In this document: positions 617-20,000 of the stretch, in pieces | How positions within the stretch are numbered: the stretch's first letter is position 1 | How the letters are laid out: each line of letters begins with the position of its first letter | IMG/VR virus record: IMGVR_UViG_3300017642_000062 | Strand: one strand, 5' to 3' | Length of the DNA: 20,000 nt | Source of the DNA: an uncultured virus (IMG/VR IMGVR_UViG_3300017642_000062) | Lineage: Duplodnaviria > Heunggongvirae > Uroviricota > Caudoviricetes | The notes under the pieces: model-generated | The model's database searches: none | Seen by the model: the letters and a program-made list of their open reading frames with translations, nothing else | Told to the model about the DNA's origin: nothing | Program-made: the position numbers and the translations under genes

Positions 617-636
617 TGGTTCGCTCCGTTGCTTTG

Positions 637-834: not shown

Positions 835-853
835 GCCTGCCTCCTTTCACGGT

Positions 854-1218: not shown

Positions 1219-1238
1219 ATAGCGAGGAGGAATTCAGC

Positions 1239-1713: not shown

Positions 1714-1866
1714 ATTCGCCGCTCCTTTCTTTTATTCTGCCGGCAGTGTAGTTAGTGTACCACGGTTTGGTATTTATTGCAGAGAAAAGATAATTAATAA
1801 CTTTCGACTGACTTCGACCAGTGATATCCTGTATGTGTGGATTTTATGTTGTTGGGGAGGATTTGT

Positions 1867-2505: not shown

Positions 2506-2528
2506 ATTTTTGAATTGAGGTGACGCCG

Positions 2529-4487: not shown

Positions 4488-5524
4488 TTCACGGTCGCGG
4501 TCTTGTTTCCGTGTCCGCTCGTCGCTCAGTTCGTCCACTCGTTTTGTGGCTTTCTCGTAACGCTTGACCAGCGCATTGTACTTTTTCGTGTATTCCTCTT
4601 GGGACTGCGCCGAAGAAGCGTTTTCCCTTACGCAGGACTTGACCATTTCGGCAACTACTTCGATTTCCTCTGACAGCCGGTCGATTTGCGCATCCAGTGC
4701 CGTGCAGTCCGAAACAGCCAATCGCATGAGCTCACAGTCGCTGATAACTGACTCGCGGCTTGCAATAAGCCGGTCGTAGGCAATCAGGAACTTCTGCTGG
4801 ATGGTCTCCGCATCGAGGTGCGGCGTAGCGCATCGCTGTTCGCCTTTGAATTTACTGTTGCAACGCCATATCACCTTGCGGTAGGTGTCGGTGGAGTGCC
4901 AGACCTTCTGCCCATAGAATCCACCGCAATCGCCGCAGACCAGCTTGGACGAAAACACGCTGTTGCCGCTGTAGGCTCTGCCGAGCGTCTTTCGGCGGGC
5001 AATCTCTGCCTGCACCATGTCCCATTCGACAGGACTGATAATAGCTTCGTGGCTGTGTTCCACATAATACTGCGGCACTTCGCCCTCGTTGGGCTTCATC
5101 TTTTTCATCAAGAAATCGACTGTGAACTTCTTTTGCAGAAGAGCATCACCCTTGTATTTCTCATTGGAGAGCATACTGTTTACCGTGGTCTGGCTCCATT
5201 TCTTTTTGCCGGAAGGTGTCGGAACGCCCTGTGCATCAAGGTATCGGCAAATTCCGGCAGGCGTCTTTCCCTCAAGGAAAAGCGTATAGATGAGCCGTAC
5301 AATGGTGGCTTCCTCCTCGTTGATAACAGGAGTGCCGTCCGCGCCTTTTTCGTAACCGAGGAATTGCTTGTACGGCATACTGACTTTGCCATCAGCAAAA
5401 CGCTTTCGTTGCCCCCATGTGACATTCTCGGAGATTGAGCGGCTTTCTTCCTGCGCAAGGCTGGACATTATCGTGATGAGCAGCTCGCCCTTGCTGTCGA
5501 AGGTGAAAATGTTCTCTTTTTCAA
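4329..5524 (-). pseudogene. Large serine recombinase, 5'-truncated or interrupted (catalytic N-terminus missing)
   Basis: Frame extends upstream of the annotated Met as EKENIFTFDSKGELLITIMSSLAQEESRSISEN (end of resolvase domain), then loses similarity and meets an in-frame TGA at 5531-5529; recombinase domain and Zn ribbon (CGDCG...WRC) intact. Confidence 0.85.
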
Positions 5525-5643
5525 GCAGTCATTGATTGCTACCATATCGTATTGGAAAGTTGAGAAAAGTGCCGTACTGCGGCCTTTTGTTGCTCTCAAA
5601 AGTGTGTATCGTGGCGCTTCGTGACCGACCGTTTAGAAGATTA

Positions 5644-5704
5644 AAACACCAAATAAACACCAAGCTGCAAGGCAATCTGTGCCTGTCATACAGCTTGGTG
5701 TTTT
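5644..5704. repeat. Candidate integrase arm-type sites and/or int terminator
   Basis: AAACACCAA twice in tandem (about 5644 and 5655) plus inverted TTGGTGTTT (5695-5703); AAACACCAAGCTG...CAGCTTGGTGTTT forms a stem. Confidence 0.55.
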
Positions 5705-5737
5705 TCTGTGTGGGAAGGCTTTTCTGTGCTGTGCCTC

Positions 5738-7099
5738 TCATACATCCGCCGTAGCCAGCGCCGTTGAAATGGCGTCGGAGGCTTGCTTCATGGTTTCGGC
5801 AAAGACGTGAGCGTAAATCGTCTCAGTGGTGCGTGTGTCCCTGTGGCCCAGATGCTCGGAAATCACCTTCACCGGCACACCCATGTTTATCAGGAGCGAG
5901 GCGTTTGCGTGGCGCAGGTCGTGGATATGTACATCCGGGAAATCGTGCTTGGCGAGAAGCTGCTTAAATTGCAGGTTGATATAGGATTTTGCCATGTACT
6001 CGCCGTATGACCCGGTGAAAACGGCTCCACGGTCAATCCAGCGTTTTCCTACAGCTTTCCGGCGCTCGTCCTGCCATTCCTTCTGCTCACGCAGGGTCTC
6101 CACCAATTGTGGCGGCAGCGCAATCACGCGGGCGCTGCTCTTGGTCTTGGGCGTGGTGAGCCGGTATTCTCCGTCCAGCCGGTAAAGATTGTACTTGACT
6201 GTAAGCATGGCCCTGTCCAAATCGACTTCATCCCAGTGCAGGGCGGTCAGCTCACCGACACGCATTCCAGTGTATAGGAGCGTTTTTATTACCCTCGGCA
6301 ACTGCGGATTGGTAAACTCATCGAGGAAAGTCATCAGTTCTTTACATTGCTCGGCATCAAGGTAGACGCGCTCCTTTTCCTCTCCGGCAGGCGTGGTGGC
6401 GTTCGTGACCGGATTTTTCAGCAGGAGCTCCTTTTTTACCGCAGTCGAGAAAATAGGTGACAGCGCTGTGCGGATACGCTTTATGGTACCCACGTCCAGA
6501 CTGCCACCTACTTCTTCTACAATAAATATGTCTTTCAACTTTACGCCCAGTGCCTCGGAAATCCTGACGGCAGTTTCCTTCAGGACCGTTTCACCGTTAC
6601 CGAGAGTGCGCAGTGTGTTCATGTTCACGCCGGACTTGCGGGCCAGCGGTCGGCGGGTACCGTACTCCAGCGTGGCAACGTCGCGCAGCTTGTAAGTTTC
6701 CCGTTTGCGACCGTCCCGGTACAACTCGTTGAACAGAGCGTCTATCCTCGCCGTGTTGATGTCCTTCAGCTTCATATTGCCGATATACGGCAGTACATAT
6801 AAGTTCATCAATTCCCGGTTATTTGCATAGGTGGCCGGTTTCAGCTTGTGAACGGCGATCTGCTCGTAATACCATGTCGCCAATTCCGAGAAGCGGATGT
6901 TCTCGTTCATATTCACCATGCCTTCACAGTGCTTCTCAAACTCGTAGGCATAGGCCATCGCCAGCTTGTCCGCTTTGCCCTCGGTCACACCCTCTGGCGG
7001 CGTGAACGTCGTATTTTTGCGTATCTGCTTACCGTATATATCGTAGCCCTGCGACACCATAATTCTGTAGGTGTCGCCTCGTTTCTGTACGCTCGGCAT
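5738..7099 (-). CDS. int: Tyrosine integrase with an internal HTH-like insertion
   Basis: Catalytic motifs TGMRVGE (R), TPKT (K), HDLRH, LGH and IYAH (Y); N-terminal arm-binding-like region; GGAGGG RBS before ATG 7099. Confidence 0.92.
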   Translation of the reverse strand: MPSVQKRGDTYRIMVSQGYDIYGKQIRKNTTFTPPEGVTEGKADKLAMAYAYEFEKHCEGMVNMNENIRFSELATWYYEQIAVHKLKPATYANNRELMNLYVLPYIGNMKLKDINTARIDALFNELYRDGRKRETYKLRDVATLEYGTRRPLARKSGVNMNTLRTLGNGETVLKETAVRISEALGVKLKDIFIVEEVGGSLDVGTIKRIRTALSPIFSTAVKKELLLKNPVTNATTPAGEEKERVYLDAEQCKELMTFLDEFTNPQLPRVIKTLLYTGMRVGELTALHWDEVDLDRAMLTVKYNLYRLDGEYRLTTPKTKSSARVIALPPQLVETLREQKEWQDERRKAVGKRWIDRGAVFTGSYGEYMAKSYINLQFKQLLAKHDFPDVHIHDLRHANASLLINMGVPVKVISEHLGHRDTRTTETIYAHVFAETMKQASDAISTALATADV

Positions 7100-7155: not shown

Positions 7156-7767
7156 TCATTCTTCTGGGTCAGGGCGGTTTATTTTTATCGTCCGATCCTC
7201 AATGGCAAGCCCTCGCTTAACAAGCTGCCTGAGAATGAATTCTTCGATATATTTCTGCAAATCCCAGATGAAATAGCCCTCAAGGTCAATGTTCCCCATG
7301 TGGCTGCGGTCTACATTGCCCTCCTCGACGGATTTAATCTGGGACGATTTGAGCGCGGCATCGTCAAGGAAATCGTAAAAATCTCGGTCGGAGAGCAGTT
7401 CGTTAATGGTTTCCATGAGAGTAGGCCCACCCTCGAAGGAAGCGGCGTCCTTTGCTCTTTTGAGCATATCTATTGCCTCCTCGGAGAGGCCCAGTTCCTC
7501 ATGGATGGATTTATTCTCGGAACTGACGCCCGTCAGCAGGTAATCCACAGATACGCCGAAGAACTCCGCTATCTTGACAAGCGTTTCCGGCGTCGGCTGC
7601 GTCTCTCCATTCTTATATAAGCTCACAGTCTGCTGCCGGATGCCGATTGCTTCCGCGAGCTCTTTGAGCGTGGTCTTTGCGTTTGTCTTTGGATGATGGT
7701 CAAGCAGCTCTCTCAACATCTTGGGGAACATCCCGTCATATCCAACTACTTGTAGCGCCATCGCCAT
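7156..7767 (-). CDS. XRE-family master repressor (Stl/ImmR-like position)
   Basis: LKELAEAIGIRQQTVSLYKNGETQP...IAEFFGVSVDYLL HTH_3 signature; AAGGAG RBS. Confidence 0.9.
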   Translation of the reverse strand: MAMALQVVGYDGMFPKMLRELLDHHPKTNAKTTLKELAEAIGIRQQTVSLYKNGETQPTPETLVKIAEFFGVSVDYLLTGVSSENKSIHEELGLSEEAIDMLKRAKDAASFEGGPTLMETINELLSDRDFYDFLDDAALKSSQIKSVEEGNVDRSHMGNIDLEGYFIWDLQKYIEEFILRQLVKRGLAIEDRTIKINRPDPEE

Positions 7768-7778
7768 ATCTCCTTTAA

Positions 7779-7902
7779 CTTTCGTTTTTCTTGAACTTTC
7801 TATTTTGCATTTCGGTTCTATTGATATTTCGCTTTTCCTGTGATATTATCATCATAACAAGCAAAACGAATGTTGTCAAGAGAAAATAAAGGAAAACGAA
7901 AA
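7779..7902. promoter_or_regulatory. Overlapping opposed promoters of the island switch with TTTCGnTTT-like operator repeats
   Basis: Rightward TTGATA(7821)-17-TATTAT(7844) with TGn; leftward TTGACA(7879-7874)-17-TATGAT(7856-7851) with TGn; TTTCGTTTT/AAAACGAA-like motifs recur in both orientations. Confidence 0.65.
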
Positions 7903-7921
7903 AAGATTGGAGGTACCGAGG

Positions 7922-8107
7922 ATGGCAAAGAAACCACTGGATAAAGCGGCGGCGGAGGCCCGGAGGGAATATTTCCGGGCATGGCGCAGGAAGAACGGCG
8001 ACAAGGTCAAGCAGTATAACGCCGACTACTGGCGCAGACAGGCCGAAAAGAAACTCACGGAGGAGGCGGGTACAAATGGAACAGCCAAACATGATGACGG
8101 TGCGTGA
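7922..8107 (+). CDS. Small basic helical protein, first gene of the rightward operon
   Basis: GGAGGT RBS, ATG 7922; ARREYFRAWRRKNGDKVKQYNADYW. Confidence 0.75.
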   Translation: MAKKPLDKAAAEARREYFRAWRRKNGDKVKQYNADYWRRQAEKKLTEEAGTNGTAKHDDGA

Positions 8108-8321
8108 AATCGCCCGCACGGGCTTGCTCTCGGAGCACGCGCTCCGGCTCATGCTGAAAGCCGGTAAACTCCCGGCAATTTACATCGGCAAAAAGGCGCT
8201 CATCAATTACGATAAGCTGTGCGCTGAACTGCAAGGGCTTGAGGCGGATTTCGCGGCAGAGCCTGTAAGCGACCCGTTCCTGCCGACGCTGCCGGGTGGA
8301 ACCCCGTTCAGGCGCGGCTGA
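8076..8321 (+). CDS. Excisionase-like winged-helix (HTH_17/MerR-like) DNA-binding protein
   Basis: MMTVREIA...LRLMLKAGKLPAIYIGKKALIN pattern; GGAGG RBS. Confidence 0.75.
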   Translation: MEQPNMMTVREIARTGLLSEHALRLMLKAGKLPAIYIGKKALINYDKLCAELQGLEADFAAEPVSDPFLPTLPGGTPFRRG

Positions 8322-8595: not shown

Positions 8596-10899
8596 ATGGA
8601 GAAGCGAATGCCGGACCCCATGCTGGAGCTAAAACAGATGCGGATCTGGATGCTGTGGCGCTGGGAAGTCAAGGAAAATGGTGAGCGCACGAAGGTGCCT
8701 ATAGCTGCTGGCGGCGGCCCGTCCGGTACCACAGAGAAGTGGAACCGTACATGGGTCACATATGATGAAGTGGTAAAGGCGGAGGAAAAAAATCCTGCAG
8801 CGGCCGGTATCGGCTTCAAGATACCAGAAGGCTACTACTTCATTGATATAGACCACAGAGCGCTTACTGACCCGCTTGTGCAGACGATTCTTTTACGGCA
8901 TGATTCGTATGCGGAATACTCGGTCAGCGGCACCGGCATCCACCAGTACGGTAAATGCGATTTTACGCAAATTCCCACCTATATTGACAAAAACGGAAAG
9001 CTGAAGCTCGACGGGCAGTTCTATACGAAAAATCCCAATAACGAAATGGAACTGTACATCGGCGGCATCACAAACCGCTTCGCAGCCTATACCGGAAATG
9101 TGATTGAAAACAAGCCTCTCCGGGAGTGTACCGCCGCTATCCTTACTACCTTAGATAAGGATATGCGCCGCGCGAGAAAGGTCAAATACAGCGTCAAGCG
9201 TGACGGAGAGAAGGTTACTTTCGATCTTATTTGCAATCTCCGCAAACAGAAAAACGGCGAAAAATTCTGTAAATTGTTTGACAAGGGAGACTTCAGCGAC
9301 TACGGTTCCCAGTCTGAAGCGGACGCGGCGCTCTGCGCGTTGCTCGCATTCCGTGCAGGACCGGACCCGGAAATGATAGACGCCGTCTTTCGGCAGTCGG
9401 CATTGTACCGGGATAAATGGGATCGAGAGGATTACCGGGATGCCACCATTGCCCTCGGCATCGAAGCCTGCCACGGCGTGTTCCACAAGTCAAAAATGGA
9501 TCACCCGTACTTCATCCTTTTTGACGATGATGGTAAGCCCTTTGTATCCGCTCCGCTACTGGCCAAATATATTCGTGAAAACCAGAGATACATCCTCGTC
9601 CGGGACAATGGCAAACAAGGCACACTCATCTACGTTTATAAGAACGGCTGCTACCGGCTATATGCCCCGGATATGATGAAGGGCGTCATCAAAGGCTATA
9701 TCGCGGCGTATGACGAAACATTGGTAAGAATGACTCTCGTCAGCGAAGTGTATGGCCAATTGACTACAGACCTTAACTATGTCAGTCAGGATGAGCTCAA
9801 CGCCGACGAGAGTCTTATCAACTTTACCAACGGCCTCTTGCGCGTGACAGCAACGGAACTGACGCTGCTGCCACACTCCCCGGATGTTCTATCGACTATT
9901 CAGATTCCATGCAGATGGACCGGGCATCCAGAGCCTACGCCGACCTTCGACCAGTATATCACGGACTTCACAAGCGTCGATAAGGCCATCGAGCAACTGC
10001 TTTTGGAATTTATGGGCGTTGGTCTTTCCAACGTGAAGGGCTGGCGTATGAAGAAGTCGCTGTTCATGGTAGGCGATGGCGATACCGGAAAATCCCAGCT
10101 AAAAAGCCTCACAGAGCTGTTGCTCGGTAAGGGTAATTTCATCGGCATCGACCTGAAAGAGATTGAGGCCCGGTTCGGCACCGGTGCTATCTATGGTACC
10201 CGCCTTGCCGGTAGCTCAGATATGAGCTTTCTGTCCGTGGACGAGCTAAAGACCTTCAAAAAGATCACGGGCGGCGACAGTCTGTTCGCGGAGTTCAAAG
10301 GACAGCAGGGTTTTGAGTACACCTACAACGGCCTGCTCTGGTTCTGCATGAACCGGCTCCCCAAGTTCGGCGGCGACGACGGCCAGTGGGTCTATGACCG
10401 CATTATGGTCGTAGAGTGTAAAAACGTGATTCCGAAGGACAAGCAGGATAAGACTCTGCTTGACAAAATGTACGCCGAGCGCGAGGGCATCGTCTACAAG
10501 GCTGTCAAAGCCCTCCAGACAGTCATTTCCAACAGCTATCGCTTCTCCGAACCGGATTTCGTCAGCAAGGCTCGTGACACCTATATGTGCGAAAACAATA
10601 CCGTTATTAGCTTCTATCACGAGTGCATGGCAGAGCGCCCACAGCCGGGTACGGTTAAGGACACCTGCACCACTGGGAAGGTTTATGACGTCTATAAGGC
10701 GTGGTGCCACGACAACAATAATGGCTACGCCAAGACCGCCAAGGAGTTCCGTGACACGCTGGCCGGGATGCTCGGCAGCACGTTTAAAGGTATGACCATT
10801 CATACAGACAAGGGCACCTGCTACCGCGACCTCACGCTCACGATCGACGCAAAGCAGCAGTACCAAAGGGAGTACGGTTATGATGAGCTTCTCGGCTGA
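8596..10899 (+). CDS. Primase-polymerase/SF3 helicase (P4/D5-family primase with NrS-1-like N-terminus)
   Basis: AEP-like DIDH and SVSGTGIH motifs, helical bundle (SQSEAD...FRQSALYRDKWDR), D5_N-like region (INFTNGLL), Walker A GDGDTGKS; AAGGAGGT RBS before ATG 8596. Confidence 0.9.
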   Translation: MEKRMPDPMLELKQMRIWMLWRWEVKENGERTKVPIAAGGGPSGTTEKWNRTWVTYDEVVKAEEKNPAAAGIGFKIPEGYYFIDIDHRALTDPLVQTILLRHDSYAEYSVSGTGIHQYGKCDFTQIPTYIDKNGKLKLDGQFYTKNPNNEMELYIGGITNRFAAYTGNVIENKPLRECTAAILTTLDKDMRRARKVKYSVKRDGEKVTFDLICNLRKQKNGEKFCKLFDKGDFSDYGSQSEADAALCALLAFRAGPDPEMIDAVFRQSALYRDKWDREDYRDATIALGIEACHGVFHKSKMDHPYFILFDDDGKPFVSAPLLAKYIRENQRYILVRDNGKQGTLIYVYKNGCYRLYAPDMMKGVIKGYIAAYDETLVRMTLVSEVYGQLTTDLNYVSQDELNADESLINFTNGLLRVTATELTLLPHSPDVLSTIQIPCRWTGHPEPTPTFDQYITDFTSVDKAIEQLLLEFMGVGLSNVKGWRMKKSLFMVGDGDTGKSQLKSLTELLLGKGNFIGIDLKEIEARFGTGAIYGTRLAGSSDMSFLSVDELKTFKKITGGDSLFAEFKGQQGFEYTYNGLLWFCMNRLPKFGGDDGQWVYDRIMVVECKNVIPKDKQDKTLLDKMYAEREGIVYKAVKALQTVISNSYRFSEPDFVSKARDTYMCENNTVISFYHECMAERPQPGTVKDTCTTGKVYDVYKAWCHDNNNGYAKTAKEFRDTLAGMLGSTFKGMTIHTDKGTCYRDLTLTIDAKQQYQREYGYDELLG

Positions 10900-11189
10900 C
10901 AGTTCTGACAGTTCTCTGACAGTTTCAGGAGCAAACTGTCAGTCAAAAAAGCCAGTAATATCAATGGTTTCACGCTCATGCTGACACTTCTGACAGTTCT
11001 TTCAACTTCTCAGCCGATTTGAGTAAAGTTAAGAAGCAAATAAAAAGTGAGATAAGGATTGTATGAGCGTGGGATAAACACAGAAAAAGTGTCAGAACTG
11101 TCAGTCAAGTCTGGAAAGCCTTGATATGACTATGTTTCCGGCGTTTTGAAACTGTCAGAGAACTGTCAGTCAACTGTCAGAACTGTCAG
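10896..11189. repeat. Iteron array, probable replication origin
   Basis: CTGACAGTT forward at 10896, 10905, 10916 and 10990 (variant 10981); reverse AACTGTCAG at 10934, 11096, 11150, 11161, 11172 and 11181 (variant 11087); A/T-rich core about 10999-11086. Confidence 0.85.
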
Positions 11190-11271
11190 CCGCAAATGTA
11201 ATCCGAGCCGTGGATGGGGGCCTAAACCGTTACCCCACTCACGGTGTTTTTATGAAAGGAGGGAAAACGAC

Positions 11272-11487
11272 ATGAATCTGATCGATTTGCTGTACGGCAA
11301 GAACCACGACAGCGCCAAAGGCAAACTGCGCCTGCAGAATCGCGCTGGTGAGCCGGTTACGGTGACCAAGGAAATCCGCTATACCGTCGCAGACGGAGCG
11401 TCCAATGTCCACATCAACGGCTATGAAGATTTAGCCCAGTACTGCCGAAGGGCCGGATACACCTATCGTTCCGGCAAGACGGTATAA
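11272..11487 (+). CDS. 71-aa hypothetical protein upstream of the capsid homolog
   Basis: AAAGGAGGG RBS before ATG 11272; the longer ORF-track start lies inside the iterons. Confidence 0.7.
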   Translation: MNLIDLLYGKNHDSAKGKLRLQNRAGEPVTVTKEIRYTVADGASNVHINGYEDLAQYCRRAGYTYRSGKTV

Positions 11488-11514
11488 CCATAACAACATT
11501 TGGAGGAAAAACTT

Positions 11515-12441
11515 ATGAATAACGAAAAGAATTATCTCATCGGCACACCTGAATACGACAAGCACTTCTGGAACGCCATGCGCGGAGCAAAAATCGACAC
11601 GGCTCTGGAAGCTGGCAGAAGCAGCGTTACCAACTCCTACGCTCTGCCGAGCGCCGCAAACAACAAATACACGGCGGCGCTGGCCACTGAAAGCCTGTTC
11701 CGGCAGATCGGTACAACTGTTATGGCCTACGATTCCGAGTACCGCATTTTTGCCCACGACTGCGATGATCTGGCACAGTGGGTTCCAGAGGGCGGCAAGC
11801 TCCCGATCTTTGATGGCGCGAACGACTTTACCCGGTACAAGGTAGATAGCTGGAAACTGGGCGCACTCGTGAAGCTGGATGAGGATTTTGTGCGTGATGC
11901 TACCTTTAATGTGGAGGACTATCTTGTACGGCGTCTGGCAAAGAATTTCGGCAGGGCCGAGGACGCCGCCTTCATCAGCGGCACCAGTGAGCAGATGCCC
12001 ACGGGAATCCTCAACGCCACGGGCGGCGCGGAGATCGGCTGCACCGGCAGCATCACATACGACGACGTCATCAAGCTGTACTTCTCTGTCAAGCCGGAGT
12101 ACCGCAAGAACAGTGTATGGCTCATGAACGACGAGACTGCGCTGGCTCTGCGTACACTCAAGGATAGCTCTGGGAATTACCTCTGGCGCGACAGCGATGA
12201 CACCATTCTCGGCAAGCGTGTGGTCATGAACAGCGCCATGCCCTCTGTGGCGGCAGGCGCAAAGCCGATTGCCTTCGGTGATTTCAGTTATTACTGGGTC
12301 ATTGCCCGTGGCCCGGTCAGCGTGGTGCCTATTATGGAACACTTCACGCTGAATCAGCAGATTGGCTATCTGGCGTTTGAGTTCCTTGACGGAAAACTTA
12401 TCCGTCCGGAGACCATCAAGGTGCTGCAAATAGCCGAATAA
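11515..12441 (+). CDS. HK97-fold major capsid protein homolog lacking the N-terminal delta/scaffold region
   Basis: EYDKHFWNAMRG, AEDAAFISGT..MPTGIL, WLMND, LKDSSGNYLW, ILGKRV, AFGDFSYYW and DGKLIRPE motifs; GGAGG RBS before ATG 11515; 308 aa. Confidence 0.88.
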   Translation: MNNEKNYLIGTPEYDKHFWNAMRGAKIDTALEAGRSSVTNSYALPSAANNKYTAALATESLFRQIGTTVMAYDSEYRIFAHDCDDLAQWVPEGGKLPIFDGANDFTRYKVDSWKLGALVKLDEDFVRDATFNVEDYLVRRLAKNFGRAEDAAFISGTSEQMPTGILNATGGAEIGCTGSITYDDVIKLYFSVKPEYRKNSVWLMNDETALALRTLKDSSGNYLWRDSDDTILGKRVVMNSAMPSVAAGAKPIAFGDFSYYWVIARGPVSVVPIMEHFTLNQQIGYLAFEFLDGKLIRPETIKVLQIAE

Positions 12442-12493
12442 GCCGCAATAACGGGAGCAGGGAGCGTCGAGATGGCGCTCTCCGCCCTTAATA

Positions 12494-12576
12494 CCCCGTT
12501 TGATTTCGCGTTTTAACACGCGAGGCCCCACGCCCGTTGTCCGCTTTAAAAGTTGTAGAGATTTTACCTCCCCCCC
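12494..12576 (-). other. Putative phage packaging (cos-like) signal
   Basis: Minus strand GGGGGGAGGTAAAATCTCTAC...GCGGACAACGGGCGTGGGGCCTCGCGTGTTAAAACGCGAAATCAAACGGGG; resembles, from recall, the G-run region between HNH and terS genes in Bacillota siphophages. Confidence 0.5.
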
Positions 12577-12581
12577 GCCGG

Positions 12582-13220
12582 TCACCGGAATGCCGAATTG
12601 CCCGTAAGGTTTTTAAGCAGTACCTTACGGGCAATTTTGTATTCGTCACCAATGAAACCCAGCCGCAGCAGGAAACAGCGGAAAGCGTACTTGTCGTTGT
12701 CGGTCTCGGCTATCACGGCCACCACGCGCTTTTGCTTTCGAGCCATCTCGCATAGCTTGGTAACAAAGGCAGAGTAGGCATTGACCTCGTCCGGTTCCGA
12801 TGTGAACGGAAACCATGGAAAGCTGACCGTTGTATCGGTGACTACCGCCTCAATAGAATCAGCCAGAAACGCTTTCTTGAAAAGAGGCGCTCTGGCTGTT
12901 ACGATTTGCTGCAGTGTTTCAATGTTGGCGTTGGTGAAGAGTTCCCTCGGCATGGAGATTGTGAGCCTGTCCTCGGTCTCAACCGCCTCGCCTACATACC
13001 CACGGGAGCGCAGATGCTCAAGCAGCGTCGTTGCCGTTTCCTCCGCCACGCAGTCCGGTATGATTAGCTTTCCGTCCCGCTCCAGAGTGCAATCACCGAT
13101 TTGGTAAGAGCAGGTGGGATAGCCCAGGTACTTGGGAATGGTGTGCAGGACCACGCTGATGTCCTCGGCAAGCTGCTTTCTCTGCTTGCCGGTGATGTTG
13201 TAGGGTATGGTCATTTTCAT
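12582..13220 (-). CDS. Prophage-type 'virulence-related protein' family hypothetical
   Basis: Conserved C-terminus NDKYAFRCFLLRLGFIGDEYKIARKVLLKNLTGNSAFR and N-terminal GKQRKQL...KYLGYPT; AAGGAGG RBS. Confidence 0.75.
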   Translation of the reverse strand: MKMTIPYNITGKQRKQLAEDISVVLHTIPKYLGYPTCSYQIGDCTLERDGKLIIPDCVAEETATTLLEHLRSRGYVGEAVETEDRLTISMPRELFTNANIETLQQIVTARAPLFKKAFLADSIEAVVTDTTVSFPWFPFTSEPDEVNAYSAFVTKLCEMARKQKRVVAVIAETDNDKYAFRCFLLRLGFIGDEYKIARKVLLKNLTGNSAFR

Positions 13221-13352
13221 GTTCTGTGCCTCCTTGTTTTTGGTAGGTGCATATTCGCTCTGAATGCACAGAATAGCAAGTCATTTTCGAGAAATGTATC
13301 AGAAAGCTAAAAGTATTCTGTAGGATAATTTCTCATAATGTGCGAAACAGCA

Positions 13353-13381
13353 TTGTATTTTGGGATTTTATGTGCTATTAT
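13353..13381 (+). promoter_or_regulatory. Putative promoter of the HTH-hsdRSM operon
   Basis: TTGTAT-17-TATTAT with TGn extended -10, in AT-rich intergenic DNA. Confidence 0.5.
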
Positions 13382-13420
13382 TTAATTTAGGTTATTATAT
13401 ATTAAGCTTGGAGGCACATT

Positions 13421-13651
13421 ATGGCTACCTCATATAACAAGTTATGGAAACTGCTTATAGACAAAAAAATGAGCAAGGCTGACTTGCGGAAAGCCTCCGG
13501 CGTGTCTCCCAACACGATGACCAAGCTGCGCCGGGACGAGCCGGTCATGCTCAATGTGCTGGACAAGATATGCAAAACCTTGGATGTCAACTATGGGGAT
13601 ATCGTTGATTATATTGTGGATGAAACCGGTGGAAAGGATGTGGAGCAATGA
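13421..13651 (+). CDS. Cro/C1-type HTH_26 regulator (controller-like) heading the R-M operon
   Basis: SYNKLWKLLIDKKMSKADLRKASGVS...LDKICKTL signature; ATGA overlap with hsdR. Confidence 0.88.
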   Translation: MATSYNKLWKLLIDKKMSKADLRKASGVSPNTMTKLRRDEPVMLNVLDKICKTLDVNYGDIVDYIVDETGGKDVEQ

Positions 13652-16047
13652 GTTATAACGAGGCTGATACAAGAGCCAAATTAATTGACCCTACTATTCA
13701 CGCAAAAGGCTGGACAGAAGACCACATCAAGCGCGAGGTATCTGCCGGAACAATTGAAATAACAGGTAAAAAAGCCAAGCGGCTAAAAAAAGGCCGTGTT
13801 GACTACACACTTCGTCTAAGGGTGAATAGCGATTCTCAACCGATAGCCGTTGCGCTCATTGAGGCAAAGAAAGAATCATTGTCACCCGGTTTTGGCTTGG
13901 AACAAGGCAAGCGCTATGCAGAAACAAAGTGCAATAATCTAAATATCAAGTTTGTCTATTCCAGCAATGGACATATGTTTGTTGAATATGATAGATTCAC
14001 CGGACTTATCAGCAATCCGAAGCCGATGAGCGAATTCCCAACTACTGAAGAACTCCGTCGTCGCTATGAGGAGGGCATGGGATTCAGTCTTGCAGACGAA
14101 AAGGCCAAGCCACTGCTTGCAAAGTATACTGGTGGTGAATCTGCAAGACGCTATTATCAGGATGCTGCAATCCGAGCAGCATTTGAAAAAATTGCCCAAG
14201 GTGGCAACAGAGTATTGCTTTCACTCGCAACAGGAGCGGGCAAGACTTTTATCGCGGTAAATTTGCTAAAACGTATTTCTGATGCCGGACAGCTTCGTAA
14301 GGCTCTTTTTGTATGTGACCGTGACGAATTACGCACACAGGGTAACAAAGCTTTTCAGGATAAATTCGGCAGTAATGCCGCTATCGCCATAGCAGGTAAT
14401 CCACAGCATAATGCGCGTGTGATTATTGCAACCTATCAGACACTTGGTGTGTCCGCCGATGACGATGATCCTTCGTTCTTGGTAGAGAATTACCCAGAAA
14501 ACTACTTCAGCCATATTGTTATTGATGAATGCCACCGCAGCGCATGGGGCAAGTGGAGCGAAGTCTTAAAACGCAATCCGGATGCAATTCAAATCGGATT
14601 GACCGCTACTCCGCGCCAAATAAAAGTACCGGAGGGTGTCGCTATAACCCCAGAAGACGAACGAATTGCAGCAGACAACATAAAACACTTTGGTGAAGCA
14701 GTGTATGAATACACATATCAACAGGCTGTAGAGGATGGTTACCTTGCCGCCTGCGTGATACAGCCTGGAAATGTTAACATTGACGATACCGGTTTAACCA
14801 TTGATGAAATAATGGCCTTAAAGCCACGTCATGCCATTACGGGTAAATTGATGACGCGAGATGAGCTGCAAGAAATCTATACAAGTCACGATTTCGAGCG
14901 AAAAATTATGTTGCCGGATCGTGTTCAGATTATGTGCAAGAATCTGTTTAATTATCTTCTTGAGACCGGTTCTCCTCTGCAGAAGACAATCATTTTCTGT
15001 GTTAGGGAAAGCCATGCCTCCGCTGTTGCTGCTGCTATGAACAACCTTTATATTGACTGGTGCAACAGCCACGAGATAGAACAGAGCAAGCGTTCGGCAC
15101 ATTATGCCTTTAACTGTACATATCACGAAGGCAAGGACTATGTTGCCGATATGAAAGGTAGCACAAAGGATTACTTTATTGCAACGACCGTAGATCTGCT
15201 TTCTACTGGCGTTGATATTCCTCCGTTGCGTAACATTGCATTCTTCCGCTATTTGGAATCGCCAATCACTGTTATGCAGATGTTTGGACGCGGTACCAGA
15301 CTGTTTGAAGACAAGCTGATGTTCACTATTTATGACTATACTGATGCTACCCGTCTATTGGGCGAAGAATACATCTCAAAACCCAAGTCTGGCGGCGGCC
15401 CCTCTCTACCCGGTGGGGATGGCACCGGTGATGATGGAGAAAACGATGGAAATGATGGCGGTGATGGCGGCAAAATCCCTAATATCATCACAGCAGACGG
15501 TGTGGAATGCTATATTACCAACGGCAGCAAATATATCGTTACTGAGATTGAAGGCAAGATTGGCCGAATGCCGCTGGAAGAATATAAGGAAGCTATTGCA
15601 CAAAGGCTTGTCAACAACTATGACACCATTGACAGTTTCCGCGCAGCTTGGATTGACCCGTCCTCAAGGCAGGAAATAATCAATGGTCTGGTTCGCAGCG
15701 GCTATGGGCCGGAGGTCGTAAGAACGGTCGAAGATATGCAGGCTTTTGATATTTATGATGTTCTGGCTGAGCTTGCCTACGGCTCTGAGCCGAAAACACG
15801 CAGCGCAAGAGTGTCCGGGTTCAAATATAAAAATCGAGCGTGGCTGAGCCAATTCTCTGCGGATGTGGCAGAGGTCATCCTTGCCATTGTTTCCGAATTT
15901 GAGACGGACGGAACCAAAGCCTTGGAAAATCCCCAGATTTTCAGAACAAACAAGGTGATGCAGGCCGGCGGTCTTCGCGTCCTTAAAAGTGCTGGAAAAC
16001 CGAATGAAATTATAGCTGAAGCTAAACGGAGGATCTTTGTAGCATGA
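13648..16047 (+). CDS. hsdR: Type I restriction enzyme R subunit (EcoAI/EcoEI-like)
   Basis: NEADTR start, nuclease motif DY...IEAKK, Walker A ATGAGKT, DECH box, GLTATP, LLSTGVD, QMFGRGTRL. Confidence 0.93.
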   Translation: MSYNEADTRAKLIDPTIHAKGWTEDHIKREVSAGTIEITGKKAKRLKKGRVDYTLRLRVNSDSQPIAVALIEAKKESLSPGFGLEQGKRYAETKCNNLNIKFVYSSNGHMFVEYDRFTGLISNPKPMSEFPTTEELRRRYEEGMGFSLADEKAKPLLAKYTGGESARRYYQDAAIRAAFEKIAQGGNRVLLSLATGAGKTFIAVNLLKRISDAGQLRKALFVCDRDELRTQGNKAFQDKFGSNAAIAIAGNPQHNARVIIATYQTLGVSADDDDPSFLVENYPENYFSHIVIDECHRSAWGKWSEVLKRNPDAIQIGLTATPRQIKVPEGVAITPEDERIAADNIKHFGEAVYEYTYQQAVEDGYLAACVIQPGNVNIDDTGLTIDEIMALKPRHAITGKLMTRDELQEIYTSHDFERKIMLPDRVQIMCKNLFNYLLETGSPLQKTIIFCVRESHASAVAAAMNNLYIDWCNSHEIEQSKRSAHYAFNCTYHEGKDYVADMKGSTKDYFIATTVDLLSTGVDIPPLRNIAFFRYLESPITVMQMFGRGTRLFEDKLMFTIYDYTDATRLLGEEYISKPKSGGGPSLPGGDGTGDDGENDGNDGGDGGKIPNIITADGVECYITNGSKYIVTEIEGKIGRMPLEEYKEAIAQRLVNNYDTIDSFRAAWIDPSSRQEIINGLVRSGYGPEVVRTVEDMQAFDIYDVLAELAYGSEPKTRSARVSGFKYKNRAWLSQFSADVAEVILAIVSEFETDGTKALENPQIFRTNKVMQAGGLRVLKSAGKPNEIIAEAKRRIFVA

Positions 16048-17210
16048 CTTTACACAAGGTATATAAAAGCGTTCCGCTTGGCAGTATATGTGAAATAATA
16101 TCTGGTACAACTCCTTCATCAGCTGTTCCAGAATATTGGAACGGTGAAGTAAAATGGATAACACCTGCAGAACTGTCAGATGACACGTTTTATGTTAATG
16201 ACAGTGTTAGAAAGATAACATCACGGGCTGTCAAAGATTGCTCCCTTCGTCCTATTCCAGCAGGTACCGTTATTTTGTCTTCTCGTGCGCCGATAGGAAA
16301 AGTTGCAATTGCAGCAACAGAATTATACTGTAATCAGGGTTTTAAGAATCTCGTTTGCTCTGAAAAGATTGACAACCTATATCTTTATTGGTTTTTGAAG
16401 GCAAACACCGATCATCTTAATTCATTGGGAAGTGGGGCCACTTTCAAAGAAATATCAAAGAAAGTCATTGAAAAGGTCGAAATCCCTCTACCGCCTATTG
16501 AGATTCAGCAGTCGATAGCTACGAAATTGTCAAAGCAATTATCAGCCATTGATGTACTGGCAAAAAAGACAGAACGGCAATTACAAGACGCCATTAGCCT
16601 TGTTGCTCGTATCAATAAACAAACGATTATATTTAATGGTAAGAAGCAACCGCTTTCCAAGTATTGTTCTGAAGATAAACGGATTATTCAACCAGAATTT
16701 GAAGAAGCAAAAACTCTGAAATATCTTGGAATGGAGAATATCGACAAGGATACCTGGGAGTATATAGCAAGTACGGATATTCTTTTATCTGGCAACAGCA
16801 CAACATATTATTTTAATGAAAACCATGTGCTTTATGGAAAGTTGCGTCCATACTTAAAAAAAGTATTTTTGCCGAAAGAGGCGGGCAGGTGTTCAACCGA
16901 ATTAATACCGCTCCTACCAGCAGATACAATGGAACGCGAGTATTTAGCGCTATTATTAACCGATGATGACCTTGTTAGCTACATCATGAGTGAATCAACT
17001 GGGGCACGGATGCCACGTTCAGATATGAAGAAACTCCTTGCATATAAAGTGGCTGTACCGGATATTGATGAACAACGGGCACGCTTGAAGGCAAGAAATG
17101 AGCAAATGAAAAAATGTACAGAGTTAATTATAAAACTCTGTAAACAGCAGGAAAACATTACAGCCCTGCGTGAATGTGTATTTAAAGAAGCCTTTGGAAA
17201 CGAGGAATAA
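16044..17210 (+). CDS. hsdS: Type I R-M specificity subunit
   Basis: Two TRDs with conserved motifs (SGTTP..YWNG, NQGF, IPLPPIEIQ, YGKLRPYL, VPDIDEQ); ATGA overlap with hsdR. Confidence 0.93.
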   Translation: MTLHKVYKSVPLGSICEIISGTTPSSAVPEYWNGEVKWITPAELSDDTFYVNDSVRKITSRAVKDCSLRPIPAGTVILSSRAPIGKVAIAATELYCNQGFKNLVCSEKIDNLYLYWFLKANTDHLNSLGSGATFKEISKKVIEKVEIPLPPIEIQQSIATKLSKQLSAIDVLAKKTERQLQDAISLVARINKQTIIFNGKKQPLSKYCSEDKRIIQPEFEEAKTLKYLGMENIDKDTWEYIASTDILLSGNSTTYYFNENHVLYGKLRPYLKKVFLPKEAGRCSTELIPLLPADTMEREYLALLLTDDDLVSYIMSESTGARMPRSDMKKLLAYKVAVPDIDEQRARLKARNEQMKKCTELIIKLCKQQENITALRECVFKEAFGNEE

Positions 17211-17213
17211 GAG

Positions 17214-18710
17214 ATGGCAAAAAAATCAAAACAAACAAGCAGCCAGAGTGCATTGAACAGTGAAATTAAGAGCATTTGCGATATAATGCGCCGCAGTAAT
17301 TGTGCCGGGGCTATGCAGTATGTACCGGAACTGACATGGATATTGTTCTTGCGTATTTTAGACGAGCGTGAAGACATCGAAGCAGAAGAAGCGGAAGCAC
17401 TGGGGCAGCGGTTTGATTATAGTCTGGAATATCCCTACCGCTGGCGTGACTGGGCCAACAAAGAAGGAAAAAAACGAAATGAGCTTGTGCAAGGTGCTCT
17501 TGGTGAGTACTTTTCTTTCATTAATGATGACCTGATTCCACATTTAAAAAGTCTTGGTGATATCCCGGACTCCAGTGCCCGCCAAAAGGTTATTGCACAG
17601 ATCATGTCCGGCGTGGAGAGAACCCGTGTGGATACTGAGAAGAATTTCCTTGATATTCTCGATAAGGTTGACGATATCAAGCAAAGCAACATAGATGACA
17701 CACATATTTTCACACTCAGTCAGATTTATGAAGGCCTTCTGCTCAAGATGGGCGAAAAAGGCAATGACGGAGGTCAGTTCTTCACACCGCGTGAGGTTAT
17801 CCGTGCCATGATTCGCATGGCAAATCCGAAGGTAGGCGAAAAAGTATACGACCCTTGCTGTGGTACAAGCGGATTTCTCGCGCAGGCCTACACGCAGATG
17901 ATTGCAGGAGACAATACGGCGGAGGACATCGAAACACTGAAGAATTCAACGTTCTATGGTCGTGAAAAAGAAAATCTTATTTATCCGATTTCCCTTGCAA
18001 ATATGATCTTGCATGGAGTCGATCAGCCACATATATGGCACGGAAATACGCTGACTGGCAGTGAAATATATGGCGGTCTATTTGAAAATGCACCAAGCCA
18101 GTATGATGTTATTCTTACCAATCCTCCTTTTGGTGGCAAGGAAGGCAAGGAGGCACAGACCAACTTTGCATACAAGACAAGTTCAACATCCATTCTTTTT
18201 CTCCAGCACATCATCGACAGTCTGAAAAAAGGCGGTCGGTGCGTTATGGTTATAGATGAAGGTGTACTCTTCCGAACTAACGAGGATGCCTATGTCAAGA
18301 CCAAGCGCAAGCTGCTTGATGACTGCAATTTGCATACGATAATCAGTCTCCCAGCAGGGCTTTTCACTTCAGCGGGTGCCGGTGTGAAAACTAATATCCT
18401 GTTTTTTGAAAAGGGAGAATCAACCGAGAAAATTTGGTACTACGATTTGTCCTGGGTGAAGGTAGGTAAGCGAAATCCGTTTACCATTGACCGGTTTGAT
18501 GATTTCTTTGCCCTGTTTCCGACAAAGGCAGACAGCGAGAACAGCTGGACTGTTGACCGGTCAACAATTGAAGCTAATAACTTTGATATCAAGGCTGTCA
18601 ACCCAAACAAGAAGGTTAAGGTCGATACCCGCACCTCTGAGGAAATAATTGCAGAAATTGAAGCCCTTCATAAAGAAATAAGTCTTGAGATTGCGAAACT
18701 TAAGGGTTGA
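17214..18710 (+). CDS. hsdM: Type I R-M N6-adenine methyltransferase
   Basis: GQFFTPR, SAM-binding DPCCGTSGFL, catalytic NPPF. Confidence 0.95.
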   Translation: MAKKSKQTSSQSALNSEIKSICDIMRRSNCAGAMQYVPELTWILFLRILDEREDIEAEEAEALGQRFDYSLEYPYRWRDWANKEGKKRNELVQGALGEYFSFINDDLIPHLKSLGDIPDSSARQKVIAQIMSGVERTRVDTEKNFLDILDKVDDIKQSNIDDTHIFTLSQIYEGLLLKMGEKGNDGGQFFTPREVIRAMIRMANPKVGEKVYDPCCGTSGFLAQAYTQMIAGDNTAEDIETLKNSTFYGREKENLIYPISLANMILHGVDQPHIWHGNTLTGSEIYGGLFENAPSQYDVILTNPPFGGKEGKEAQTNFAYKTSSTSILFLQHIIDSLKKGGRCVMVIDEGVLFRTNEDAYVKTKRKLLDDCNLHTIISLPAGLFTSAGAGVKTNILFFEKGESTEKIWYYDLSWVKVGKRNPFTIDRFDDFFALFPTKADSENSWTVDRSTIEANNFDIKAVNPNKKVKVDTRTSEEIIAEIEALHKEISLEIAKLKG

Positions 18711-18763
18711 ATTTAGTTGGGCCTAGTTATTACCTACTCTCTAAATCGACGGAGGTATCCGCA

Positions 18764-19471
18764 GTGATAAACTATAATATTTATTGTGACGAAAGTTGTC
18801 ATCTGGAACATGACGGTATCAACGTAATGGTACTTGGTGCTGTCTGGTGTCCACACGATGCTGCGAGAGAGATAAATGAGCGTATTCGCAACATTAAGGT
18901 ACGAAACGGCATTTCTCCAACAGCTGAAATGAAGTGGACAAAAATAAGCCCTGCCAAGATACAGCTATACGCTGATCTAATAAACTATTTCTTTGACGAA
19001 GGGTTATTACATTTTCGTGCAGTTGTAATCCCCAACAAAAACATGTTAGACCATGTGCGCTTTAATCAAACACATGATGACTGGTATTATAAAATGTATT
19101 TTGAGATGTTAAAACAAATTTTAACACCGGAAGACAGATACAATATTTATATTGATATAAAAGATACGAATTCGAATAGAAAAGCCCAAAAGTTACGGGA
19201 AGTGTGCAGTAATTCTATGTATGACTTCAGTAAAACCGTCATTCGTAAGTTACAGCCGATACGCTCCGAAGAAGTGCAGCTTATGCAAATTGTTGATATC
19301 CTTATTGGCGCGTTGGGCTATGCCAATCGACAATTCTCAGATGAGCACATAAAAAGCACGGCTAAACTTGCCATAATAGACCTGATAAAAAAGCGATCAG
19401 AATACTCCCTGCGTAAAACCACACTTCTGCGGGAAGAAAAATTCAATATCCTTATTTGGGATGCGAGGTAG
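18764..19471 (+). CDS. DUF3800 family protein (possibly phage P1 RlfA-like)
   Basis: N-terminal IYCDES and C-terminal Q..D motif (LMQIVDILIGA); GGAGGT RBS before GTG 18764. Confidence 0.8.
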   Translation: MINYNIYCDESCHLEHDGINVMVLGAVWCPHDAAREINERIRNIKVRNGISPTAEMKWTKISPAKIQLYADLINYFFDEGLLHFRAVVIPNKNMLDHVRFNQTHDDWYYKMYFEMLKQILTPEDRYNIYIDIKDTNSNRKAQKLREVCSNSMYDFSKTVIRKLQPIRSEEVQLMQIVDILIGALGYANRQFSDEHIKSTAKLAIIDLIKKRSEYSLRKTTLLREEKFNILIWDAR

Positions 19472-19475
19472 GACA

Positions 19476-20000
19476 ATGCAAAACAATTGTTGGCTTCCCT
19501 GCCTTGAGCAGTTCAATGACTACGCCGGTGATTGGGGCAAATACGAAGCTGTACTTTACGAAATATTCAAAAGAGATTTTATTGATACTAAACCAAACTT
19601 TGAGGACAAGCAGGTGAATATCCGTAGGCAACCTATGGTCAACGATAAAGAAGAAGCGTTTATTCATATCACTCATCAGGATTATAATAAGGACGGTGAA
19701 CGCCTGCCAGATATGCGACGCTGCGAGAGAATACGATGGGTGCGAAGCTTTATCGAAAAATATAATTGCGACTCGTCACAATGTTCAAATTGCGACGGTG
19801 TGAAAGTCTGGGAAGAAGATAAGCAGCCTAAATGGGGTGGAAACCGTATTCATTTGCTCTTGGAGGAGGAACGGTTTATGGTCGTTATTGAACGTAAAAA
19901 TACATATTTTCAGTTAGTGACAGCATTTTACTTCGAGCAAGACCATTCGTTGCGAAAAAAAATACGGCATTATAAAAACTGTGCAACAAAAATAAGATGA
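19476..20000 (+). CDS. Hypothetical partner of the DUF3800 gene (possibly phage P1 RlfB-like)
   Basis: Closely coupled downstream; motifs EEAFIHIT, ERLPDMRRCERIRW and LVTAF; stop at 19998-20000. Confidence 0.7.
   Translation: MQNNCWLPCLEQFNDYAGDWGKYEAVLYEIFKRDFIDTKPNFEDKQVNIRRQPMVNDKEEAFIHITHQDYNKDGERLPDMRRCERIRWVRSFIEKYNCDSSQCSNCDGVKVWEEDKQPKWGGNRIHLLLEEERFMVVIERKNTYFQLVTAFYFEQDHSLRKKIRHYKNCATKIR

Follow-up and report, generated by a model that had tools for sequence, protein, structure and literature searches.

A towerless HK97-fold capsid homolog in small Bacillota islands as a candidate capsid-piracy module

Capsid homologs encoded by elements that exploit phages have been described in several systems. 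Ccm of SaPIbov5, which is 24% identical to the capsid protein (CP) of the helper phi12, forms the pentamers of small T=4 capsids (PMC8569155). Two phage-inducible chromosomal islands (PICIs), PmCI172 and EcCICFT073, also encode capsid homologs, with PmCI172 making small capsids (PMC6092414), and the PICI-like tycheposons carry a major capsid protein (MCP) or terS (bioRxiv 10.1101/2020.12.28.424599). In addition, 'mini viral entities' of 5-11.6 kb have been reported in which an HK97 MCP occurs without portal, terminase or tail genes, and for which a satellite hypothesis was raised (PMC13669383); the general phenomenon is thus already published. Here we analyse a 20,000-nucleotide stretch of DNA from an uncultured Caudoviricetes virus (IMG/VR record IMGVR_UViG_3300017642_000062; hereafter, the window), in which a small integrative element encodes a 308-aa capsid homolog that lacks the coiled-coil tower of the HK97 delta (scaffold) domain.

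Small elements with a lone HK97 MCP are already in print, but the make-up of their dominant group differs from that of the window's family. Within the CC-licensed literature of PMC and bioRxiv, we found no account of primase/recombinase islands of Bacillota that have a towerless or delta-less capsid homolog among their core genes. The capsid feature described here is real and conserved, and its function is one that we infer. Our preferred reading, to which we give about an even chance, is that a small PICI-like satellite, which integrates and replicates itself, uses the gene as its capsid-piracy module, similar to Ccm but towerless.

The capsid homolog and the point at which it begins

The program-made open reading frame (ORF) at the capsid gene has a TTG start and covers 11500-12441 (313 aa), and the ATG at 11515, located 8 nt after a GGAGG ribosome-binding site, gives 308 aa; the frame is intact down to the stop codon at 12439-12441. 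The initial annotation had proposed this intact 308-aa frame with a strong ribosome-binding site of its own, starting just ahead of an EY..FWNAMR segment, and all of this stands, with EYDKHFWNAMR occupying residues 13-23. The protein matches PF05065 (Phage_capsid) with an E value of 4.7e-62 and 210.4 bits (cut-off 24.2), its residues 42-305 aligning with profile positions 3-279 of 280; this is its sole Pfam match, and no encapsulin domain was found among its Pfam matches. It also matches phrog_10 ('major head protein', E 5.9e-63), in which residues 11-307 correspond to columns 335-636 of 752, the C-terminal part of the profile.

The AlphaFold2 model, built on a 105-sequence alignment spanning the short and long clades described below, has a predicted local distance difference test score (pLDDT) of 94.0 and a predicted template modelling score (pTM) of 0.89; it supersedes a poor one (pLDDT 56.7) for which the alignment was shallow, with 64 sequences of at least 61% identity. 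It presents an HK97 (Johnson) fold with the spine helix, the E-loop and the P and A domains. Capsids stand at the top of a Foldseek search against the PDB, namely those of RcGTA (E 2e-22), Mycofy1, the capsid-forming PICI (cf-PICI) EcCI2, HK97, SaPI1 and SaPIbov5. With VIA-align, the RcGTA capsid gives a Z score of 20.7 (root-mean-square deviation 4.0, 239 aligned) and that of EcCI2 19.9. The HK97 structures overall score 16-17.5, with 17.5 for prohead II and 16.6 for prohead I (8fqk_D, model residues 13-308 on chain residues 76-383), while the 80alpha procapsid CP scores 17.4 (model 13-308) and D3 prohead 1 scores 15.8 (model 12-308 on chain 82-394). Sequence identity is 29-30% to the RcGTA MCP and 8-11% to encapsulins.

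The closest complete phages, compared through INPHARED, encode MCPs that are 36-40% identical to the capsid homolog, and all 546 matching phage records lie below 60% identity. These phage-like relatives are 399-404 aa long, against 308 aa in the window. Two genomes were opened. In PV036447.1 (Anaeroplasmataceae phage NatCom_34063, Ca. Heliusvirales), the 1200-nt MCP gene (399 aa) comes after the portal gene and a gene without annotation that takes the place of the protease; similarly, in MF172979.1 (Erysipelothrix phage phi1605), portal and Clp protease genes precede an MCP gene of 1209 nt (402 aa). When 13 island capsid proteins were aligned with these two MCPs (alignment A1), all 13 began 82-90 columns after the phage proteins and about 10 residues ahead of the shared EY.K.FWNAMR motif. 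This motif lies at about residues 95-106 of both phage MCPs, in line with the proposal that the segment follows some 100 aa into phage proteins of roughly 400 aa.

What is missing can be read against HK97. The scaffold of HK97 prohead I has trimeric coiled-coil towers, made of residues 2-66 and in contact with the portal, whereas residues 76-105 are a rigid helix-turn-strand that lines each capsomer on its inner face (PMC10275583). Because residue 13 of the model corresponds to HK97 residue 76 in the structural alignment, the capsid homolog keeps the last ~30 residues of the delta region, without the tower and the spacer; the full delta domain including the tower, a feature of HK97-like MCPs that have no separate scaffold, is absent from it. 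By the model, then, the window protein begins where the coiled-coil tower would end and not where the delta domain would. This corrects the initial annotation, which had the protein start at the end of the delta domain. The EY..FWNAMR segment forms helix 12-22 of the capsid homolog, and its Y14 and F18 reach a conservation of 80% or more in the short clade as well as in the long one. Judging from the offsets of the structural alignments and from how long the mature RcGTA chains are as modelled, the counterpart of the maturation cleavage site is expected somewhere between residues ~25 and ~40. The N-terminal extension of the 399-404-aa phage MCPs is assumed, by analogy with HK97, to be a coiled coil. 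A further claim, that the usual G.YLVP motif has diverged to NSYALP, holds in that the phage proteins have GGYLVP at this place; however, the family as a whole reads GxYAxP, in which Y42 and P45 hardly ever vary, so NSYALP is a family trait and not a sign of decay.

The short-form family and its genomic context

The short form is widespread. A word-seeded homolog search returned 2520 proteins at E <= 0.001 among 3519 candidates, and an exhaustive search of 50%-identity representatives returned 11726 proteins at this threshold and 336 at 1e-30. Among the best 120 homologs (61-99% identity), 115 are 307-329 aa long, the others having 260, 261, 293, 341 and 382 aa. From the best 150 representatives, we retained the 100 whose alignment covers 85% or more of the query; the remaining 50 align partially and were set aside. 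In 63 of the 100 there is no N-terminal extension, and these measure 284-336 aa except for one that reaches 451 aa through a C-terminal extension. Another 36 (376-609 aa) are extended by 57-301 residues at the N-terminus, and one is intermediate. ORFs of 338-399 aa at the capsid gene of L023, L029, L034, L050 and L052 (L numbers denote loci) were considered as fusions and rejected, as they reflect upstream in-frame starts with nonsense-like N-termini. A quick IQ-TREE tree, whose root is not known, was made from 95 rows (the window protein, 62 short and 32 long forms), leaving out one short form above 340 aa, four long forms above 430 aa and the intermediate. In it, a branch with an SH-aLRT of 100 sets apart 55 rows, the window protein among them, all of which are short. 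On its other side are 40 rows, made up of the 32 long forms and of 8 short ones that may stem from truncated gene calls. As the wider family normally has long forms, the simpler reading is that the N-terminal part was lost at the base of the short clade.

The source databases label this family 'phage major capsid protein', and some relatives are split or frameshifted (L018, L022, L039, L044 and L046). Both observations would suit an ordinary explanation, in which the gene is a decaying remnant of prophage head genes or the normal MCP of a complete phage with a separate scaffold. The ratio of nonsynonymous to synonymous substitutions (dN/dS) argues against the first possibility. It was computed by NG86 from codon alignments of 47 intact genes (the window and 46 loci), leaving out broken or partial copies such as L014, L015, L018, L022, L037-L039, L044 and L046, and using the 216 of 1081 pairs with 0.05 <= dS <= 1.5. 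The median is 0.085; the window gives 0.11 with L048 and 0.26 with L004, a pair with very few changes (dS 0.05). Over the first 33 codons, too, pN is far below pS in nearly all pairs. Neutral decay of the short-form capsid genes is excluded, and the length kept by 115 of the best 120 homologs points the same way. As for the second possibility, complete phages have as their closest homologs proteins of 399-404 aa with an N-terminal extension, not short forms beside a scaffold gene, and no head, tail or packaging gene lies near the capsid gene in any of the 54 related loci. The two conditions under which the initial annotation would have fallen, neutral decay and complete-phage homologs of equal length with separate scaffolds, were both checked, and it withstood each. 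We therefore regard an ordinary head gene, decayed or functional, as most improbable.

Conservation also bears on whether the protein still builds shells. Thirty-six positions, distributed across the entire fold, are conserved at 80% or more in both clades; residues that reach 75% within each clade but differ between the two were found at no position. One could speculate that the capsid fold has been exapted as a binding module outside particles, sensing or titrating the protease, portal or scaffold of a helper, or regulating the element. The helix-turn-strand, which is kept and conserved (Y14, F18) and which in HK97 lies on the capsomer interior, would suit such a role, as would the tight and conserved linkage of the gene with small unknown proteins (orf71, and a 103-aa zinc-ribbon ORF in relatives; see below). 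However, the 36 core positions are conserved as in bona fide phage MCPs, the pattern expected of a shell-forming protein, and clade-specific replacements were not found. A purely non-structural role is thus unlikely.

The 54 related loci (43 + 11, from one-genome-per-species and IMG/VR scans, at 44-97% identity) share a common plan. Its 5' part consists of defence or other cargo, a helix-turn-helix (HTH) gene, a gene for a 319-391-aa unknown protein, one for a small HTH_17 protein and a primase-helicase gene. These are followed by orf71 and/or the 103-aa zinc-ribbon ORF, the capsid homolog of ~315 aa, TnpW and a large serine recombinase carrying DUF4368, beyond which lie housekeeping genes. 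As variants, L049 has Tn916-type Int/Xis with a DUF3987 helicase-primase, and L038 a phage-type integrase like that of the window. A primase homolog lies 5' of the capsid gene in 30 of the 33 loci with at least 3.5 kb of upstream DNA; L025 has one by tblastn, and L007 and L022 have none. Among the 36 loci with at least 3 kb downstream, 33 have a recombinase within 8 kb, the exceptions being L045, L050 and L052. Where both ends can be guessed (L023, L010, L031 and L028), the element measures an estimated ~7-11 kb. Among cultured strains, the island occurs in Acetobacterium carbinolicum DSM 2925 (L031), together with a prophage whose 403-aa MCP belongs to the long sister clade, in Syntrophomonas wolfei subsp. 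methylbutyratica JCM 14075 (L028), with a like combination, in Anaerobium acetethylicum GluBS11 (L010) and in Suipraeoptans intestinalis 68-1-5 (L041). The defence cargo of relatives consists of restriction-modification (RM) or BREX genes (BrxA/BrxB).

In contrast with this regular core, other virion genes are missing. Pfam scans covered 89 proteins from 8 loci, then 66 proteins from 7 further loci together with 4 window ORFs, and finally 105 ORFs without a BLAST label from the remaining loci; neither in the window nor in these 89 + 70 + 105 proteins did we find portal, terminase, prohead-protease or tail families. The proteases met in the scans are host types outside the elements (Lon, FtsH, BlaR1-like, subtilase and M29). 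Similarly, none of 276 flanking ORFs of at least 170 aa resembles the portal, protease or large terminase subunit of the two opened phages.

A ~103-aa ORF with two CPxC pairs, a zinc ribbon, is located directly 5' of the capsid gene in most relatives of the serine-recombinase type and is absent from the window and L004. It was considered as a split-off delta domain, and rejected: it encodes a zinc-ribbon CPxC...CPxC protein rather than a coiled coil, and the window lacks it. The 319-391-aa proteins, which have no Pfam family and are encoded divergently from the primase operon, match an HNH endonuclease family of PHROG weakly in their C-terminal part (E 1e-4 to 4e-4). In one GenBank record from human faeces, L003 (MT838964.1, 4712 bp, 'UNVERIFIED: Bacteriophage sp.'), the gene content is limited to a primase homolog (65-69% identity) and a capsid gene of the short form (53% identity).

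The size and layout of the capsid homolog, with an N-terminal helix, the HK97 fold and no scaffold, match those of family 1 encapsulins, on which the model superposes from about residue 14-20 to about 305 with VIA-align Z scores of 15-17 (17.1 for 9i8e). The initial annotation had listed encapsulin-like self-assembly among its possible roles, and the evidence assembled here settles that suggestion neither way. An autonomous shell, assembling without a scaffold as encapsulins or procapsids do, could enclose a partner protein of the element or its DNA by a non-canonical route, and the report on mini viral entities discusses satellite as well as non-canonical options (PMC13669383). However, the sequence belongs to the phage family PF05065, carries no encapsulin Pfam domain and has no adjoining cargo enzyme or scaffold gene in the loci scanned, and we consider such a shell very unlikely. 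There is equally slim reason to expect its more specific version, in which the short clade would form portal-less encapsulin-like particles, with the helix-turn-strand docking orf71, the zinc-ribbon protein or primase-bound DNA. Should scaffold-free shells nevertheless be real, the islands would form a still-existing link between the capsids of tailed phages and encapsulins, and would give defence islands a new means of travel among anaerobic Bacillota.

The element in the window and its proposed role

The features of the window, and those of relatives to which we refer, are collected in the table. The integrase marks the left end of the element; a fragment 87% identical to it adjoins the same type of primase in L038, and homologs of orf81, 81% identical, precede the primase gene in L015 and L038. 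The putative replication origin, so read from its repeats, has CTGACAGTT iterons in the left arm and the inverse, AACTGTCAG, in the right arm, with an AT-rich centre between them. In L010, L028 and L031, whose primases are ~70% identical to that of the window, the same layout is built from GGTAGCAGT; the iteron thus differs with the primase variant, which fits a cognate origin. Homologs of orf71, 66-83% identical, lie 5' of the capsid gene in 12 aligned loci, with a mean column identity of 83%. Between the window (11249-12584) and L004 (1707-3044), the orf71-capsid cassette is 94% identical in DNA, whereas the primases are 24% identical and the recombinases belong to different classes, which points to recent exchange of this module.

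Features of the window and of related loci referred to in the text
Sequence	Feature	Position	Strand	Basis or remark
Window	Large serine recombinase gene	4329-5528	-	without N-terminal catalytic domain; cut at left end of island
Window	Tyrosine integrase, 458 aa	5738-7114	-	Phage_integrase E 2.2e-27, Phage_int_SAM_3
Window	HTH_3 (cI-like) regulator, 203 aa	7156-7767	-	HTH_3 E 2.8e-16, Phage_CI_repr E 3.4e-4, PHROG repressor families
Window	Divergent promoter-like sites	7821-7879		consensus scan, 10/12 on + and 11/12 on -, both extended TG; consensus matches only
Window	orf81	8076-8321	+	head of rightward operon; weak PHROG HTH match, E 9e-4
Window	D5-type primase-helicase, 781 aa	8554-10899	+	NrS1-1_pol-like_HBD, D5_N, DUF5906, Pox_D5; phrog_1829 DNA primase, E 1.1e-113
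Window	Iteron array, putative origin	10895-11196		repeat search; directly 3' of primase stop codon
Window	orf71, 71 aa	11272-11487	+	directly 5' of capsid gene; no Pfam, PHROG or PADLOC match
Window	Ribosome-binding site GGAGG	11502-11506	+	read from sequence
Window	Capsid homolog, 308 aa	11515-12441	+	PF05065, phrog_10, AlphaFold2 model, phage MCP alignment
Window	212-aa protein	12582-13220	-	convergent with capsid gene; middle of phrog_2443 'amidoligase enzyme', E 6.6e-52
Window	Type I RM genes hsdR, hsdS, hsdM	13648-18710	+	ResIII/EcoEI_R_C, Methylase_S, N6_Mtase
Window	DUF3800 protein and next ORF	18707-20000	+	PADLOC PDC-M04A E 2.2e-93, PDC-M04B E 1.3e-60; second ORF runs off window
L010	Iteron array	3997-4305		
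L028	Iteron array	7259-7565		
L031	Iteron array	7254-7568		
L010	Zinc-ribbon ORF	4645-4956		
L028	Zinc-ribbon ORF	7657-7971		
L031	Zinc-ribbon ORF	7661-7972		
L033	Zinc-ribbon ORF	7662-7973		
L008	Zinc-ribbon ORF	7669-7977		
L041	Zinc-ribbon ORF	7660-7983		
L010	Member of the 319-391-aa proteins	232-1191	-	
L028	Member of the 319-391-aa proteins	3492-4667	-	

Downstream of the capsid gene, the 212-aa protein has homologs in L017 (~4.7 kb 3' of the capsid gene), in L046 (adjacent to the capsid gene) and near the terminase of the Heliusvirales phage PV036447.1 (L001, 478-1434); L050 and L052 have a positional counterpart, an ORF of 212/232 aa on the opposite strand. The type I RM genes, which may belong to the element, are probable cargo: they accompany the core in sequencing runs X2-X4 and are absent in X6. 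The PDC-M04 A/B genes, a candidate defence system, are also probable cargo, and a stretch of DNA 73% identical to their region lies 3' of the capsid gene in L017. PADLOC has no family for the capsid homolog, orf71, the primase or the 212-aa protein, and for orf71 the Protein Atlas likewise returned no usable match.

The left junction of the element falls at ~5505-5530, inside the serine recombinase gene, whose missing N-terminal half was found nowhere else in the window. Contigs of other runs start matching the window at 5487-5509; in three other studies, contigs carry the core (5.5-13.3 kb) without the left flank of the window, and X6 also lacks 13.3-20 kb. Public runs with the element come from bioreactor, sludge and wastewater metagenomes (20 rows from 16 studies, one possibly the source of the window); they show the core with different flanks, with no excised form and no RNA dataset among them. 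For attachment (att) repeats, the longest exact match between 5440-5760 and 12440-20000 is 11 nt, and a 15/18 repeat (5720-5737 and 13215-13232) was rejected as an att pair because it clashes with the contig break points. Further to the left, positions 1-4069 of the window are 100% identical to an 11.7-kb virus record (G001), and a serine recombinase ORF (2520-4487) reads into unrelated sequence after ~4069, which indicates a junction of two mobile elements at that point.

The window element shares several features with PICIs: an integrase at one end with divergent regulators, its own primase with an adjacent putative origin and, in the Pfam and PHROG scans, no phage structural or lysis gene besides the capsid homolog. 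Relatives have serine or Tn916-type recombinases where the window has a tyrosine integrase. Together, the integrase, the repressor, the primase-helicase, the iteron origin and the lack of any other virion gene, a context that recurs in relatives, favour the capsid-piracy readings. The use of helper capsids is further suggested because the capsid gene would be the only means of transfer of the element, and because a lone satellite capsid homolog, Ccm, is known. Of the roles offered by the initial annotation, the context thus supports those that act on helper capsids, without separating redirection of capsid size from poisoning of assembly. From this context we infer satellite status, co-assembly with a helper MCP, an effect on head size and processing by the helper protease. 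Prophages of the portal/ClpP-type protease/400-aa MCP type are candidate helpers; MCPs of the long sister clade occur in prophages of two of the five island-bearing genomes (G002, 403 aa; G006, 404 aa).

The following mechanism can be proposed. The island encodes a complete HK97-fold subunit, with N-arm, E-loop, P and A domains and the helix-turn-strand, that has lost a tower of ~80 residues. Lacking the portal-contacting and trimer-forming tower, this subunit would probably be unable to start a head alone, and would instead occupy lattice positions in heads built by a helper with a full-length MCP, much as Ccm assembles with the CP of phi12. Since the towers of HK97 appear next to the portal as two trimers per hexon (PMC10275583), towerless subunits may fit best at pentons, and extra pentons favour small shells, as argued for Ccm (PMC8569155). 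The outcome would be small heads suiting an element of ~7-11 kb, spoiled helper heads, or both; piracy and helper poisoning would then be two faces of one mechanism, which our data do not separate.

It is also tempting to consider interference on its own, with the towerless subunit as a dominant-negative poison of infecting phage heads that protects the host population and plays no part in island transfer. The defence genes that adjoin the capsid gene, which in the window are those of type I RM and PDC-M04 and which relatives have as RM or BrxA/BrxB, would agree with this idea, and a subunit without the portal-binding, trimer-forming tower would plausibly disturb assembly. Moreover, acquired capsid homologs have been presented as one way in which pirate elements suppress phage multiplication (PMC8569155). 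However, the capsid gene is a conserved core gene beside the replication module rather than variable cargo, it has no PADLOC family, and, as conjugation or other transfer genes are absent, a transfer role for the sole virion gene is more economical. Interference and piracy are not mutually exclusive, and interference without transfer appears to us rather unlikely.

Several observations weigh against the proposal that the capsid gene serves a satellite. A towerless satellite capsid subunit is without precedent, since Ccm keeps an 87-residue delta domain. No small terminase gene, cos or pac was recognised in the Pfam and PHROG scans, which short sites would escape, and orf71, the zinc-ribbon ORF, TnpW and the other small ORFs gave no informative PHROG or Pfam match. 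The islands of G002 and G006 have only capsid coding DNA in common with the 20 kb around the co-resident prophage head genes; G003 and G004 have no other PF05065 gene, and a third of the five genomes has only a distant one. In addition, no right end could be placed for the window element, which with its cargo would exceed 14 kb. Finally, there are the five broken or split copies mentioned above, although in metagenome-assembled genomes assembly errors are indistinguishable from real decay.

If the satellite proposal is correct, these islands represent a large undescribed family of phage satellites, with thousands of proteins in dozens of clusters at 50% identity, in anaerobic Bacillota of guts, digesters and sediments, in which islands with RM, BREX and candidate defence genes hijack helper heads through one towerless capsid gene. 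They would also offer a natural experiment on the HK97 delta domain, in which the portal-binding, trimerising tower has been split from the helix-turn-strand. Moreover, the 'phage major capsid protein' label leads to small islands being counted as viruses, as with 11 IMG/VR contigs and one GenBank record here.

Comparison with known systems

The capsid homolog belongs to the same Pfam family as HK97 gp5 and the 399-404-aa MCPs of Bacillota phages (PV036447.1, phi1605 and the L059/L060 prophages), with 36-40% identity to the latter over the whole shell region, including the EY..FWNAMR helix. The Bacillota phage MCPs, however, have an N-terminal extension of ~80-95 residues and sit in a portal-(protease)-MCP-adaptor-tail module, and the window protein has neither. 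With family 1 encapsulins (~270-310 aa) it shares the HK97 fold, an N-terminal helix and the absence of a scaffold domain. Unlike them, it has no Linocin_M18-type Pfam match and no cargo operon, its identity to them stays at the 8-11% given above, and the neighbours of its gene are the primase, orf71 and the amidoligase-like gene, with no encapsulin-type cargo gene. The cf-PICIs are usually described as carrying a full head and packaging module on the island. EcCI2 resembles the window element in encoding an HK97-fold capsid protein, one of the best structural matches of our model, but no portal, protease, adaptor or terminase is present in the window or in the loci scanned. The window element is not a cf-PICI, and its capsid homolog is not an encapsulin by sequence or context.

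Similarly to the mini viral entities, the window element is small, has an integrase and replication genes, and carries an HK97-fold MCP as its sole structural gene. The dominant group of those entities has encapsulin Pfam domains, a scaffold protein and RepA-type replication (PMC13669383), whereas the window element has PF05065 only, no scaffold gene and a D5-type primase-helicase. As in PmCI172, EcCICFT073 and the tycheposons, an integrase, regulators and a primase or replication module are combined with a capsid homolog as the packaging-related gene, but the hosts of those elements are Gram-negative or cyanobacterial, unlike those of the window's family.

A further parallel is the cos-type S. 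aureus pathogenicity island SaPIbov5, where Ccm is also an HK97-fold homolog of a helper CP on an island without portal, protease or large terminase subunit. The model matches the SaPIbov5 procapsid entry 7rwz with a Foldseek E value of 2.6e-11 and a VIA-align Z score of 15.3 (chains C and B). Identity in this structural alignment is 11-14%, which reflects a shared fold only, with no sequence-level relation detected, and the two elements differ in host and in type. Ccm has 355 aa, and its delta residues 1-87 are cleaved off (PMC8569155); in contrast, the window protein has only ~30 residues ahead of the N-arm. If it does act on helper heads, it would be a second capsid homolog turned pirate beside Ccm, and a mechanistically distinct one.

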